Notes: a model not told the origin generated them from the letters alone. A stretch of DNA of 18,723 bases from Gemmatimonadota bacterium (GCA_046758745.1 JBHIAV010000051.1:1-18723), one strand, 5' to 3'; positions 13,562 through 18,249 are shown, counted from the stretch's first letter. A program made the numbers and translations.

Positions 13562-13590
13562 TTGTGAGGGCGCTCCGCCCCGCCTACGAT
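13562..13590 (+). promoter_or_regulatory. Sigma70-type promoter, probably giving a leaderless HD-protein mRNA
   Basis: TTGTGA (13562-13567), 17-bp spacer, TACGAT (13585-13590). ATG 13598 lies 7 nt downstream with no SD sequence. Confidence 0.45.
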
Positions 13591-13597
13591 GGGCTCG

Positions 13598-14446
13598 ATG
13601 AGCGAGCTACCGGCAACCGACCCACGGTCCGAGGTCTTTCGCGGCTCGATGGAGGAGCGGTTCGGAGTCCGCCACCGGATTTCCGTTCCCGCTCGGCGCA
13701 ACGGGATCCTCTCCACCCTCATCGATCGTGTCAACGACAGCGATGAGATCTACGCCCTGTGGGTGGGGCAGAACGTGAACGCGGTGGACCGACAGGCGAT
13801 GTCCGACCACGGTCCCGTTCACGTGCAGATCGTGGCGAACTCGGCCCTCCGTCTCCTTCGTCTGCTTCGGGACGGCGGCATCCAGCCTTCGGTGGTGCTG
13901 GACTACGGGCTCACCCCGGCGGACGCCGAGGTGGTGGTGGTTCTCGCGGCACTGTTTCATGACGTGGGCATGTCGATCCACCGGGATGGTCACGAGGCGT
14001 TCTCGCTCTTCGTAGCGCAACCGGTCCTCCGCTCCCTACTCTCCGAGGTGTACCCGCCGCCCAGCGACACCGTGATCCGGAACGAGATCTTGCATGCCAT
14101 CATCTCGCACCGGGGAGGCGGCCGCCCGCTCACCCTGGAGGCCGGGGTGCTGCGGATCGCCGATGCGCTGGACATGGCGAAGGGGCGCTCGCGCATCCCC
14201 TTCACGGCCGGCTCGATGAGCATTCACTCCGTGTCGGCCGCGTCCATCGATGCCGTGCACATCGAGAAAGGTGAAGCGACCCCGGTCCGCATCCGGATCC
14301 AGATGGCGAACTCCGCCGGCGTCTTCCAGGTGGACCAGCTTCTGCGCGACAAGCTGAAGGGTTCGGGTCTGGAGACGTATCTCCAGATCGTCGCGCAGAT
14401 CGAGGGCGAGACCGAGAAGCGGATCGTCGAGACCTTCCAGCTGTAG
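13598..14446 (+). CDS. HD-superfamily metal-dependent phosphohydrolase (COG3294-like)
   Basis: DHGPVH, LFHDVGM, HAIISH and IADALD motifs. Alternative ATG at 13589. Confidence 0.88.
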   Translation: MSELPATDPRSEVFRGSMEERFGVRHRISVPARRNGILSTLIDRVNDSDEIYALWVGQNVNAVDRQAMSDHGPVHVQIVANSALRLLRLLRDGGIQPSVVLDYGLTPADAEVVVVLAALFHDVGMSIHRDGHEAFSLFVAQPVLRSLLSEVYPPPSDTVIRNEILHAIISHRGGGRPLTLEAGVLRIADALDMAKGRSRIPFTAGSMSIHSVSAASIDAVHIEKGEATPVRIRIQMANSAGVFQVDQLLRDKLKGSGLETYLQIVAQIEGETEKRIVETFQL

Positions 14447-14468
14447 CCGTCCCCCGCTCACGGACGGC
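14446..14468 (+). terminator. GC hairpin directly after the HD gene, possible terminator (no U-tract)
   Basis: GCCGTCC (14446-14452) pairs with GGACGGC (14462-14468). Confidence 0.35.
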
Positions 14469-14494
14469 ATCGCCTCCGTCGATCCCGGATCGAC

Positions 14495-14523
14495 TTGACC
14501 ACCATATGTGGTATCCTTACCTT
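14495..14523 (+). promoter_or_regulatory. Sigma70-type promoter
   Basis: TTGACC (14495-14500), 17-bp spacer, TACCTT (14518-14523), in an AT-enriched patch. Confidence 0.7.
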
Positions 14524-14546
14524 GTAGATGCCCCAACATGTTGCGG
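14499..14546. promoter_or_regulatory. Tandem NrdR boxes
   Basis: CCACCATATGTGGTAT (14499-14514) and CCCCAACATGTTGCGG (14531-14546) resemble the NrdR consensus acaCwAtATaTwGtgt. They start 32 bp apart, the usual tandem NrdR spacing, and straddle the -10. Confidence 0.75.
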
Positions 14547-14550
14547 TCAT

Positions 14551-14633
14551 TGTGGACAACTCGGGTGCGATGCGTGGATTGGGGTGGAAAAGTCGTGCCG
14601 TCGTGTGCAGAGGCCGGGAAGGCCTGTGGAGAA
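14551..14633 (-). promoter_or_regulatory. Cluster of co-oriented DnaA-box-like 9-mers
   Basis: On the minus strand: TTGTCCACA (14551-14559), TTTTCCACC (14583-14591), CTCTGCACA (14604-14612) and TTCTCCACA (14625-14633), matching TTWTNCACA at 8, 8, 7 and 8 of 9. Start spacings are 32, 21 and 21 bp. Confidence 0.55.
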
Positions 14634-14761
14634 GTCGGGGGCGGCGACACGTCGTTCCAATTGGACGACAGGTTGAGGCAGCCCGGCAGGGTCGCAGTTC
14701 GAGTTTCGTCGGCACTGGGTAGCCGGCGGAAGGAGCGCAGCCGATCGTGAGGAGGACCGAG

Positions 14762-14962
14762 ATGGCCGAGGTCGGCGGGAGCGGCGAGGTCATCGTCGAG
14801 CGCGGGCGAATACTGAAACATCCTTCCCTCACGACGAAATGGCTTCGCGATGCGGTTTCGGCCGGCCGGTCGGCGTTCGAGCGCGAGATGCGTCGAGAGC
14901 GACGTGGCTTGGACGCCGAGTTCGACCGGTTCTGGAGAGAGAGGTCTGCCCGCCAGGCGTAG
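14762..14962 (+). CDS. Small hypothetical protein, 66 aa, Arg/Glu-rich, no recognised family
   Basis: AGGAGG (14750-14755) lies 6 nt before ATG 14762. Sequence MAEVGGSGEVIVERGRILKHPSLTTKWLRDAVSAGRSAFEREMRRERRGLDAEFDRFWRERSARQA. Promoter upstream and strong hairpin downstream. Confidence 0.7.
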   Translation: MAEVGGSGEVIVERGRILKHPSLTTKWLRDAVSAGRSAFEREMRRERRGLDAEFDRFWRERSARQA

Positions 14963-15039
14963 CGAAGGGAACCCAGCGAAGCGAAAGCACGAGGGGTAGG
15001 GCCGGTCGGCCGTAGCCGATCCGGAATCCCGGCGGGTGT

Positions 15040-15070
15040 GAGGCCCCGGGGCGCGAGGCCCCGGGGCCTC
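15040..15070 (+). terminator. Perfect 13-bp stem hairpin, probable terminator or 3' stabiliser of the small-ORF transcript
   Basis: GAGGCCCCGGGGC (15040-15052), loop GCGAG, GCCCCGGGGCCTC (15058-15070). No long U-tract. Confidence 0.55.
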
Positions 15071-15230
15071 TGCACAGGGACCCGGTGCGGGCCCCGGGGT
15101 GCGGTGCCGGCTCGCCGGGCCGCTCCGGACCGCGCGCGCAACCGAAGCCCGGCCCGCTTTCGGACTGGTTCGCCGTCATTCTCGCCGGTAGAATACCCGG
15201 TGGAAGGCCCGACTCTGGTGGGACTGCCGC

Positions 15231-15325
15231 CCCCGGGGGTTGGAAGCGGGGGGCTCCCGGCGGGTCGAAGCGGGGACCTTCGGCGTGGCCGAAGCGCAGG
15301 CCTATCGAGAGCCGAAGGCGGAGCC
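15231..15325. repeat. Degenerate 24-bp tandem repeat, about 4 units
   Basis: GAAGCG at 15243, 15267 and 15291 (period 24) and GAAGGCG at 15314. The first two units CCCCGGGGGTTGGAAGCGGGGGGC and TCCCGGCGGGTCGAAGCGGGGACC are clearly similar. Confidence 0.5.
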
Positions 15326-15342
15326 GCCGCCCCCGGACACCG

Positions 15343-16695
15343 ATGGAGAACTCCGGCGCGCGGCACATTGAAGCGAGAGCCTCTGACGGGTCGAGATCGA
15401 AGTACGTGACCAGCGACGATCCGAAGCGACGAGCCGCCGCCTCCGGGCGGTCCCACCCGGCAGCGGTATTCCGACCGCGCCGCAGGACGGTCACCGTGCG
15501 GGTCGGCGGCGTGGCCATCGGCTCCGATCACCCGATCGCCATCCAGTCGATGACAAACACCGACACGGCCGACGTCGACGCGACGGTCGCTCAAGCCGAG
15601 ACGCTCGCGGCGGCGGGAAGCGAGCTTGTCCGGGTAACGGTGAACACGGCCGCGGCCGCGGCCGCCGTCCCCACGATCGTCGGCCGGCTGCGGGCGCGCG
15701 GGGTGGAGGCGCCGATCATCGGCGACTTCCACTTCAACGGACACATCCTTCTTCCGCGCAACCCGCAATGCGCCTCGGCCCTGGACAAGTACCGGATCAA
15801 TCCCGGCAACGTGGGAAGCAGGCGGTGGGATGTGCACTTCGCAGCGATCATCGAGTGCGCGATCGAGCATGGGAAACCGGTTCGCATCGGCGTGAACTGG
15901 GGCTCGCTCGACCAGAAGCTGCTCACCCTCCTGATGGACGAGAACGGGCGGCGCCCCGAGCCGCGCGAGGCGCACGAGGTGACGCTGGAAGCGATGGTTG
16001 AGAGCGCCATGAGCTCGGCTCGCTTCGCCGAGGATGTGGGGCTTCCCCACGACGCGATCATCCTGAGCGCCAAGGTCTCCGGCGTTCGCGACCTGATCTC
16101 CGTGTACCGCGCTCTCGCCCCCCTGTGCGACTACCCGCTGCACCTCGGCCTGACTGAGGCGGGCATGGGCCGGAAGGGGACCGTGGCCAGCACGGCCGGC
16201 CTGGCGATCCTGCTCTCAGAAGGCATCGGAGACACGATCCGAGTTTCGCTCACCCCGCGCCCCGGGGAGGACCGAACGGAGGAGGTCCACATTGCCCGGC
16301 AGATCCTCCAATCGCTCAGCCTGCGCAGCTTCACGCCCCAGGTCACCGCGTGCCCCGGTTGTGGCCGCACCACCAGCACCTTCTTTCAGGAGATGGCGGA
16401 GGAGATCGAGGGCTACCTCGACCGCCACATTCCGGAGTGGCGCGCACGCTATCCCGGGGTCGAGGAGCTGACCGTCGCCGTGATGGGGTGCGTGGTCAAC
16501 GGGCCGGGCGAATCCCGCCACGCCGACATTGGGATCTCGCTTCCGGGCACGTTCGAGGAACCGAGCGCGCCGGTGTACGTGGACGGCGAGCACCGGGTCA
16601 CGTTGCGTGGCGATGGAATCGTCGAAGACTTCATCGAGATGCTCGAGCGATACGTCCGCGAGCGCTTCGGCTCGGGTGTCGGGGCAGCGAGCTAG
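15343..16695 (+). CDS. ispG: (E)-4-hydroxy-3-methylbut-2-enyl-diphosphate synthase
   Basis: [42 protein letters not shown], and Fe-S ligands ACPGCGRT and [10 protein letters not shown]. Start uncertain (ATG 15343 or GTG 15406). Confidence 0.95.
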
Positions 16696-16873
16696 AGGCG
16701 AACCGCGCAACTCCGCCTTCGAAGGCTCGTTCGACCGTACGGCGGGCACCGGCCGACCGGACCCTCCAGCAGGAAGACCGCGGTAACGTGGGGCAGGAAG
16801 GGGTCGGGAAGGGCCAGGCGCCGGCATCCGGCAAAGAGCCGTTCCGCCTTGCGCTGCCCGTCCGGGAGGGGCA

Positions 16874-17737
16874 TCAGGGGCTTCCCCGCAGCCGCACCCC
16901 GCGCCGGAAACGGAGACGTCGAAGAGCGCGAGCGATCTGACGCAGCTCCTCCGGCCAGCCGAGGCGCCTGCCGTCCAGCCGGTGGACGCGCTCCATCCCT
17001 CGCACGGCGTTGGTCAGGAACACGCCCTCCGCCCGCGACAGTTCCGAGGGGGGAAAGTGGCCCTCCTCGACACGCAGGCCGGCCTCGCGGGCGACCTCGA
17101 GGACGAGGGAGCGGGTCACCCCGGGGTACAGCGGAAGCGCGGCCGACGGCGTCCGGAGCGTGCCGTCTGCAAGCCAGAAGAGGTTGGCGGCCGAGGCCTC
17201 GGTCAGCCGGCCGTCATCGAGGCGGAGGATTTCGTGCACCCCTCGCTCCGCCGCCGCGCGCGCGGCGAGAACGGCCGATAGGGCGCTGCAGCTCTTCACG
17301 CCGGGAATCGCCGGTCCGGGAAGGCGGAGGTCGGGCGCGGCAGTCGCGACGCTCAGACGACGTGCCGGCGGCGGGGCCGATAGCTCCACGAAAGCCCGGC
17401 TTCCTTCCGCCTCCGATCGGCCGTAGCCCCGTTCCGAGACGCCAGCGCTCACCTGCGCCCGCACCACGACCGCGCGCCGTTGCTCGATATCGAGGCAAGC
17501 GAGCACTTGGAGGAAGCGGTCCACCCCCGACAGCTCGGGCGGCACGGCGAGGCCGAGCGTCTCGCAGCCCAAAGCCAGCCGCGCAAGCTGTGCGGGCGCG
17601 TCGAGAAGTCGCCCTGATCGCCATGAGAGGGTCGCGAAGACGCCGTCGCCATACCGGAACGACCGGTCCCTCACCGAGACTTTCGCGTCGCGGGCCGCCC
17701 GCACCTCCCCCGCCACCCACACGAGGTCGCGGCTCAT
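16874..17737 (-). CDS. Aminotransferase class IV (PabC aminodeoxychorismate lyase / IlvE-like)
   Basis: DRSFRYGDGVF, GVKS (PLP lysine), LTEASAANLF, LYPGVTR and EGVFLTNAVRG. Confidence 0.88.
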   Translation of the reverse strand: MSRDLVWVAGEVRAARDAKVSVRDRSFRYGDGVFATLSWRSGRLLDAPAQLARLALGCETLGLAVPPELSGVDRFLQVLACLDIEQRRAVVVRAQVSAGVSERGYGRSEAEGSRAFVELSAPPPARRLSVATAAPDLRLPGPAIPGVKSCSALSAVLAARAAAERGVHEILRLDDGRLTEASAANLFWLADGTLRTPSAALPLYPGVTRSLVLEVAREAGLRVEEGHFPPSELSRAEGVFLTNAVRGMERVHRLDGRRLGWPEELRQIARALRRLRFRRGVRLRGSP

Positions 17738-17859
17738 CGACCCCTCTCCCGCGACGGGGGACGAGCGGCGTCTCCTCCCTTGTCGGTCGGCCGGGCAGAG
17801 CGCAAGTTACAGAATGGGAGGCTGCTACTCGCCACTCGGATGCACCGGGAGGGAGCTAC

Positions 17860-18249
17860 ATGCGCTCGAGATTCGGAGTCGAGGTCTGGCTTCTGATCGC
17901 CGTCGCCGCCGCCACAGCCGGGTGTGCCCGTCAGGCCGTGGTCGCCTCCGAGCCGGGGAACCCCGGCGCCGTTCGGGCCTCGGTGGACGCGTCGCTCAGG
18001 GCCGATCTCGCGCGGCTCGCGGAGGCTCAGAGGAGTTATCGGGAAAGGGAGGGGAGATACGCGGACAACCTTGCCGCCCTCGGGTTCTCGCCGACGGCGG
18101 GGGTGACCGTGAGCATCCTCCAGGGAGATCGGAACGGCTTCTCGGCCATCGCGAACAGCGGTGACTTCGAGTGTGCTGTCTACTCCGGAAGCATACGGTC
18201 CCCGCGGTCGTATGTCACGTCTCCGGATGCGATAGCCTGTCGATCTTGA
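17860..18249 (+). CDS. Putative lipoprotein with a type IV pilin-like globular domain
   Basis: GGGAGGGAG RBS and signal peptide ending in lipobox TAG-C. Then LRADLARLAEAQRSYREREGRY, beta-strands GVTVSI and GFSAIA, and two C-terminal Cys. Confidence 0.75.
   Translation: MRSRFGVEVWLLIAVAAATAGCARQAVVASEPGNPGAVRASVDASLRADLARLAEAQRSYREREGRYADNLAALGFSPTAGVTVSILQGDRNGFSAIANSGDFECAVYSGSIRSPRSYVTSPDAIACRS

Follow-up and report, generated by a model that had tools for sequence, protein, structure and literature searches.

Why should a control region of the type that governs ribonucleotide reductase genes stand in front of an open reading frame (ORF) of only 66 amino acids (aa)? This question is raised by an 18,723-nt stretch of DNA from a Gemmatimonadota bacterium (GCA_046758745.1 JBHIAV010000051.1:1-18723), called the window below, which is contig C51 of a metagenome-assembled genome (3.08 Mb in 130 contigs, 68% G+C, 87% complete). 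NrdR is viewed as a nearly reductase-specific repressor, and an initial annotation of the window had described a control region of the NrdR/DnaA type without finding a reductase gene; indeed, the window holds none, and the sole match in the genome lies on another contig, C38. We propose, with a probability of roughly 0.72, that a small protein specific to this lineage is encoded here by a self-contained gene, which is governed in the same manner as the gene for the cell's only reductase, NrdJ, and would be co-induced with it. Coordinates refer to the window unless a contig is named, and the features of the window lie on its plus strand except for the NrdR boxes, which have no strand assigned.

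A tandem NrdR operator upstream of the small ORF

Two predicted NrdR boxes occupy positions 14499–14514 (box 1) and 14531–14546 (box 2), the latter over the inferred transcription start. They lie 32 bp apart from start to start, which leaves a 16-bp spacer, and 15–16 bp is the common spacing of NrdR boxes according to sections of PMC12051234. Both boxes match the consensus acaCwAtATaTwGtg, as given in parts of PMC4009431, at all of its strongly conserved positions (C4, A6, A8, T9, T11, and G13; 6/6 in each box), and the invariant columns in an alignment of 45 operators, which support box 1, are exactly these positions. Scored with a weight matrix trained solely on the nrdJ promoter boxes of 25 relatives, with this site and this genome left out, box 1 reaches 18.6 bits and box 2 reaches 20.3 bits. 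A scan of the genome with the same matrix (6.1 million position-and-spacing tests) returned four pairs above 16 bits, namely those at nrdJ (39.9 bits), in the window (38.9 bits), and on contigs C37 (38.0 bits) and C29 (27.5 bits). The site in the window thus ranks second in the 3.08-Mb genome, behind the genome's own nrdJ promoter, and a chance origin of the box pair is excluded. The repressor that the initial annotation had presupposed is encoded in the genome, with an nrdR match of 178 bits that exceeds the family cutoff. Class II nrdJ is the sole ribonucleotide reductase gene detected, and neither nrdB nor nrdD was found in the genome searched, which is 87% complete.

The core promoter is interwoven with the boxes. 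As first annotated, a –35 element TTGACC (14495–14500), which overlaps box 1, and a –10 element TACCTT (14518–14523), which falls within the 16-bp box spacer, can be read from the sequence 17 nt apart. The nrdJ promoter of the same genome is built likewise: TTGA leads into box 1, and box 2 follows after a 16-bp spacer that contains a TAnnnT hexamer. Among the 19 loci at which we find the small ORF (the window and 18 relatives), TTGA stands against box 1 in 10, or in 11 if one TTGC is included, and a TAnnnT hexamer lies at +19 from box 1 in 11. On every sequence-level feature that we tested, the control region in the window belongs to the NrdR operator class.

Conservation of the operator together with the ORF

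In six-frame searches, 18 of the 24 genomes from the same family yielded an orthologue of the 66-aa product (E 2e-21 to 2e-8), and none of 16 sister-family genomes did so at E <= 0.001. The tandem boxes are kept at all 19 small-ORF loci, invariably with a spacer of 15 or 16 bp. All 18 orthologues have their pair upstream, as would be expected from the initial annotation: these pairs score 34.6–46.1 bits (against 18.5 bits for the 99.9th percentile in 4137 control windows), lie 31 or 32 bp apart, and begin 154–321 nt 5' of the aligned coding region. Since the leaders are poorly conserved apart from protein-binding motifs, this retention of the boxes amounts to phylogenetic footprinting. At nrdJ, a pair is present in 26/26 genomes, and 16 promoters of the family share the build in which TTGA leads into box 1, with TTGA at most one base off.

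The small gene is also physically linked to nrdJ. In 10 of the 11 relatives in which both genes were found, nrdJ shares contig and strand with the small ORF and lies 5' of it, with start-to-start distances of 2.8–11.5 kb; it is immediately 5' in at least 4 relatives, and at four loci the C-terminal cysteine-rich tail of NrdJ stops 37–73 nt before box 1. In the genome studied here, nrdJ is on contig C38 and the small ORF on C51, where a TetR gene precedes the HD-domain gene upstream of the ORF, which suggests that the local order has changed here or that the contigs join farther off. This separation, together with the close resemblance of the two promoters, could be taken to mean that an orphaned duplicate of the nrdJ promoter, left behind by a rearrangement, merely drives a chance ORF, a scenario that the initial annotation had itself raised. 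We consider it scarcely credible: the ORF and its operator are conserved jointly at 19 loci in at least 16 genera, and the nrdJ of relatives sits upstream with an operator of its own and never after the small-ORF promoter.

Coding status and predicted structure of the 66-aa protein

The coding sequence spans 14762–14962 including the stop codon (ORF 14762–14959) and, as annotated initially, specifies a protein with 13 arginines and no cysteine. Its identification rests on the orthologues and on codon-level selection. A Shine-Dalgarno-preceded ATG (GGAG/GAGG type) opens a product of 62–72 aa in 16 of the 19 loci, and the 19 chosen products measure 50–72 aa. In their alignment, about 20 aa at the N-terminus vary, and these are followed by a core of about 45 aa that is conserved and includes 8 invariant residues. 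The proportion of nonsynonymous differences is below that of synonymous differences (pN < pS) in 168 of 171 pairs, the median ratio of nonsynonymous to synonymous substitution (dN/dS) is 0.39 over 134 unsaturated pairs, and the third codon position varies most. These patterns, which agree with the conservation anticipated from the initial annotation, indicate that the 66-aa ORF is a real gene under purifying selection.

The family is narrow, and the lineage is uncultured. In a sample of the phylum, the gene was found in 9 of the 30 genomes that belong to the family, as opposed to 0 of 371 from 11 other families, and public copies of its relatives carry the label Gemmatimonadota. Among 5.8 billion proteins the family forms 119 clusters, few of them named by their source and nearly all as "hypothetical protein". 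A profile search of 1.84 billion proteins gave 32 representative clusters of 35–142 aa, except for one weak match of 332 aa (E 6e-4); these near-uniformly short lengths give no evidence that the small protein is a split-off domain. Neither Pfam (E <= 0.01) nor NCBIfam has a family for it. At the level of search results on NrdR, Gemmatimonadetes, and nrdJ, we found no literature account of the gene.

AlphaFold2 models a single helix over residues 25–65 with a mean predicted local distance difference test (pLDDT) score of 80.4 and values below 50 for residues 1–9. The product is thus predicted to consist of a disordered, variable N-terminal part of about 20 aa followed by a long, conserved amphipathic helix that is highly charged, a shape better suited to binding a partner or pairing with itself than to catalysis. 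When PDB chains were searched with a profile of the small protein, no match was returned at E <= 10, and the ESM Atlas gave no usable feature match, with single helices as the only structural look-alikes.

The relation of the small gene to ispG

The ispG (gcpE) gene lies downstream of the small ORF at 15343–16695 (Pfam PF04551, E 1.6e-114; start codon uncertain) and comes next after the ORF in 14 of the 19 loci, where the distance between the ORF stop and the ispG coding match can be as small as 148–170 nt. It is therefore conceivable that ispG is the gene truly regulated, with the small ORF as a leader peptide or upstream ORF and the hairpin that follows it (see below) as an attenuator, so that NrdR and DnaA would gate isoprenoid synthesis. 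In favor of this reading, the hairpin in the window has no T tail, and in one complete relative ispG directly follows nrdJ, so that it may be part of the nrdJ unit there. However, the amino acids of the ORF are conserved, with 8 invariant residues and a dN/dS of 0.39, which would be unexpected for a mere leader peptide, and hairpins after the ORF have T-rich tails in several relatives. Moreover, the boxes track the small ORF and not ispG: at three loci that lack ispG (a peptidase gene 5', rpsU and a cold-shock gene 3'), the ORF, the boxes, and the 9-mers described below are all kept, whereas two genomes of the family that have ispG without the ORF show no box pair within 1.5 kb upstream of ispG. 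On balance we hold regulation of ispG as the purpose of this locus to be improbable, and ispG is probably a unit distinct from the small-ORF gene.

The complete relative just mentioned is a family genome without the small ORF (nrdJ–ispG region at 1449028–1453285 of its contig C1), where ispG may be cotranscribed with nrdJ; two of six exact DnaA-type 9-mers of this genome lie in its nrdJ leader.

DnaA-box-like repeats downstream of the operator

Three matches to TGTGGAWAA, which corresponds in reverse complement to the DnaA-box consensus TTWTNCACA, follow box 2 in the window, each with one mismatch and all in a single orientation. The first (14551–14559) corresponds to a position found at +3 to +6 past box 2 in 15 of 18 relatives, the second (14583–14591) lies 32 bp farther at an offset of +36 that recurs in relatives, and the third (14625–14633) another 42 bp on at the likewise recurrent offset of +78. 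Across the 18 relatives, the 1931 nt after box 2 hold 43 forward and 0 reverse matches, compared to 7 in the remaining 82 kb of these loci, and at least two 9-mers follow box 2 in 16 of the 18. Clusters of at least three 9-mers per 200 bp occur three times in the genome, namely here, in the nrdJ leader, and in an AT-rich intergenic region on contig C13. The last of these (C13:4220–4315) contains exact and near-exact 9-mers next to an AT-rich stretch. It lies in an intergenic region of 800 bp, flanked by the start of a D-Tyr-tRNA deacylase gene and the end of a helicase gene, and might represent an origin of replication or a different site under DnaA control.

Which protein would bind these repeats? 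By their match to the consensus they are probably DnaA sites, and exact DnaA-type 9-mers are found in many relatives. Alternatively, the GTGGAAAA-type 9-mers could serve another factor, extend the NrdR operator, or belong, as an upstream element, to a second promoter closer to the ORF. Several observations point in that direction: TGTGG is common to the 9-mer and to the 3' half of the NrdR box; the complete relative has its two exact nrdJ-leader matches and none near dnaA; and its dnaA regions contain at most two one-mismatch 9-mers, weak matches beside an AT-rich stretch after dnaA. In addition, a motif TTGAC/G..GGCCCC recurs about 125 nt past box 2 in about 10 of 18 leaders (14671–14690 in the window) and could represent either a second promoter or an RNA element; no convincing –10 element follows it in the window. 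On the other side, many copies are exact to the near-universal DnaA box in reverse complement, all share one orientation, their recurring offsets (+4, +36, and +57 or +78) correspond to spacings of 21, 32, and 42 bp that are close to whole helical turns, and the third cluster of the genome lies in the AT-rich intergenic region that is a possible origin. We therefore regard a role of the 9-mers other than DnaA binding as the less probable explanation, yet one to be kept in mind. Of the NrdR/DnaA control region proposed in the initial annotation, the NrdR half has held up, as the boxes agree with those of nrdJ in sequence and spacing and are placed alike with respect to the –35 element, while the DnaA half stands as conserved repeats that are probable DnaA sites.

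Leader and hairpin

The leader measures 215 nt between box 2 and the ATG, or about 230 nt, as first annotated, if counted from a start inferred 7 nt past the –10 element; it ends with the Shine-Dalgarno sequence AGGAGG (14750–14755) before the ATG at 14762, again as the initial annotation had it. In relatives, leaders of 55–226 nt are maintained, and the length of the leader in the window might suggest that the unit works chiefly through its RNA, as a regulator, and that the ORF is incidental or plays a secondary part as in a dual-function RNA. Nevertheless, the leaders show poor conservation beyond the protein-binding motifs, and the fold of the leader in the window is ordinary (z = –1.82). 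A structured leader RNA was dropped as a candidate, given that 11 of 200 shuffles fold at least equally well. No Rfam family reaches its gathering score anywhere in the window, with only chance-level matches at E <= 10 in 14400–15500, so that the leader holds no riboswitch of a known family. Together with the codon-level purifying selection on the ORF, this makes a primarily RNA-based function very improbable.

Downstream of the ORF, a GC-rich hairpin at 15040–15070 has the perfect 13-bp stem noted in the initial annotation (15040–15052 paired with 15058–15070) around a 5-nt loop, and the 44-nt stretch that contains it has a folding energy of –39.3 kcal/mol. It is a probable terminator lacking a T tail. 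Hairpins lie 9–91 nt past the stop codon of the ORF in the 17 relatives with sufficient downstream sequence, several of them with T-rich tails.

Proposed regulation and function

Taken together, these features suggest how the gene would be controlled. Box 1 lies over the –35 element, the –10 element in the 16-bp spacer, and box 2 over the putative start site, in the layout of the genome's nrdJ promoter. NrdR tetramers with deoxyadenosine triphosphate (dATP) and adenosine triphosphate (ATP) bind the two boxes, according to sections of PMC12051234. By analogy, when dATP is plentiful, NrdR carrying dATP and ATP would sit on both boxes, occlude the –35 element and the start, and turn the promoter off; when deoxynucleoside triphosphates (dNTPs) drop, NrdR would leave the DNA and the small-protein gene would be switched on together with nrdJ. 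The phased 9-mers past the start would probably allow DnaA to tune or block transcription, much as DnaA modulates E. coli nrdAB. The resulting transcript would comprise the leader of about 215–230 nt, a strong ribosome-binding site, the 66-aa ORF, and the GC-rich hairpin.

Several observations weigh against this reading as a whole. The promoter geometry varies across the family, as 7 of the 19 loci lack both TTGA and TTGC at box 1, and in the window a strict sigma-70 scan calls no promoter (the –10 element matches at 3 of 6 positions), just as a strict scan for T-tailed terminators calls none at the tail-less hairpin. Exact DnaA-type 9-mers form no cluster near dnaA in this genome or in one complete relative, and at least two DnaA-like 9-mers are present in only 8 of 16 nrdJ leaders of the family. 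The gap of only 148–170 nt between the ORF stop and the ispG coding match in several relatives leaves scant space for a promoter of ispG itself, so that partial read-through into ispG is possible. All relatives are kin, and the counts given above are of non-independent events. In favor of the reading, a sequence-only operator model finds exactly one site, at nrdJ, in 16/16 sister-family genomes and 6/6 ORF-less genomes of the family; in ORF carriers it recovers the site of nrdJ (if that gene is in the assembly) and that of the ORF, with few others at most. It was trained on the sites that it recovers, however, and only the rarity of further sites is informative.

What might the protein do? Its linkage to nrdJ and the common operator make a role in dNTP supply or replication appear most likely, for example as a putative partner or modulator of NrdJ, and if candidate partners are ranked by regulation and linkage, NrdJ comes ahead of replication or initiation proteins, NrdR, and IspG. 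More specifically, and only tentatively, we suggest that the helical protein could directly bind NrdJ or the replication initiation machinery and would be made only when NrdR senses low dATP.

We also looked for features of NrdJ that track the small protein and rejected this candidate, as just 1 of 944 alignment columns, and no indel, separates the 9 carriers from the 11 non-carriers. The nrdJ of this genome (C38:5950–12720, minus strand) is a 2255-aa open frame with a Pfam match in three separated pieces and probably carries inteins, compared to intein-free genes for 836–884 aa in most relatives. In nrdJ promoters of the sister family, a TTGA-type –35 element lies inside the box spacer and does not abut box 1, and no DnaA-like 9-mers follow.

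Comparison with known systems

The NrdR operators of E. coli nrdAB, nrdHIEF, and nrdDG and of S. coelicolor nrdAB and nrdRJ, as far as they are described in parts of PMC12051234 and PMC4009431, share with the window two partially palindromic 16-bp boxes, a spacer of 15–16 bp, and an overlap with the core promoter. The difference is in the gene controlled, which here encodes neither a reductase nor a known reductase accessory but a 66-aa predicted helical protein of no known family. Passages of PMC4009431 name DnaA as one of the regulators that act on the class Ia genes in E. coli. The locus would thus resemble E. coli nrdAB in combining NrdR sites with DnaA-type (here DnaA-like) sites at one promoter. 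In E. coli, however, the DnaA boxes lie upstream of the nrdAB promoter, whereas the DnaA-like 9-mers in the window lie downstream of the start as a phased array in one orientation.

Sda of Bacillus subtilis is a small DnaA-regulated checkpoint protein, a helical hairpin that acts on sporulation kinases. Similar to Sda, the protein studied here is very small and predicted to be helical, has DnaA-type sites at its gene, and could likewise report replication status. Unlike Sda, it is predicted as one long helix and belongs to a phylum not known to sporulate, and the two show no sequence relation (none in Pfam-A at E <= 0.01 or among PDB chains at E <= 10).

Small reductase partners include NrdH, NrdI, and YfaE in bacteria and Sml1 and Spd1 in yeasts. 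The likeness lies in their being small proteins whose genes stand next to that of the reductase or are co-regulated with it. A protein without cysteine cannot be an NrdH-type redox or YfaE-type iron-sulfur protein, and an identity as NrdH, NrdI, or YfaE was rejected on the further grounds that the product has no flavodoxin or other Pfam or NCBIfam domain, is predicted as a single helix, and resembles no solved chain. Sml1 and Spd1 differ in being eukaryotic and unrelated in sequence.

Neighboring genes and further NrdR-type sites

About 0.9 kb free of large genes separates the end of an HD-domain gene (14446) from ispG. The HD-domain gene (13589–14446; 285 aa; Pfam PF01966, E 5.7e-9) lies outside the small-ORF unit, is preceded by the TetR gene, and has no NCBIfam name. 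Its orthologue adjoins the small ORF on the 5' side in 7 of 19 loci and in several relatives it separates nrdJ from the small ORF; a function as nucleotide hydrolase would fit this neighborhood. On the 3' side of ispG, a 466-aa ORF (16849–18249) without Pfam or NCBIfam family has partial homologues of 38–48% identity at the equivalent position in four relatives. A 561-aa ORF on the minus strand (14458–16143) has no Pfam match, overlaps ispG, and is considered spurious.

Two further NrdR-type sites stand before short ORFs elsewhere in the genome. On contig C37 (14519–14565, minus strand), a pair of 38–40 bits with a –35 element TTGACA precedes a 65-aa ORF with four cysteines in a zinc-ribbon-like pattern, for which a weak match to Cys_rich_CWC is the only Pfam result and which has no homologue among 25 relatives. 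On contig C29 (889–936 and 1221–3318), a pair of 27.5–33 bits is accompanied by TTGACC and TATAAT; it stands before a conserved 110-aa ORF, after which comes a pyruvate kinase gene. The 110-aa ORF is present in 24 of 26 genomes over both families and has no known family; its model reaches a pLDDT of 82.7 without a PDB fold match at E <= 0.001. An NrdR pair lies ahead of it in only 5 of 12 loci, and in two genomes of one genus a pair is found directly 5' of pyruvate kinase. In relatives, the gene for the 110-aa protein lies 1–5 kb downstream of the small ORF, so that C29 probably continues the contig of the window.

Significance

The locus offers a natural example of an NrdR operator recruited by a non-reductase gene. 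What appears new is a control region of the reductase type, with NrdR and probably also DnaA sites, on a novel small protein whose gene adjoins nrdJ in relatives. If our tentative proposal of a binding partner is true, the protein would be a bacterial counterpart in logic, not in ancestry, of Sml1 and Spd1 or of the checkpoint protein Sda. We know of no dedicated partner proteins of class II reductases, and in that case it would be the first one described. A small protein without known relatives bears the full nrdJ-type control region, retained across at least 16 genera, and so lends itself to tests as a possible new factor that acts in dNTP supply or couples dNTP status to replication in these bacteria.

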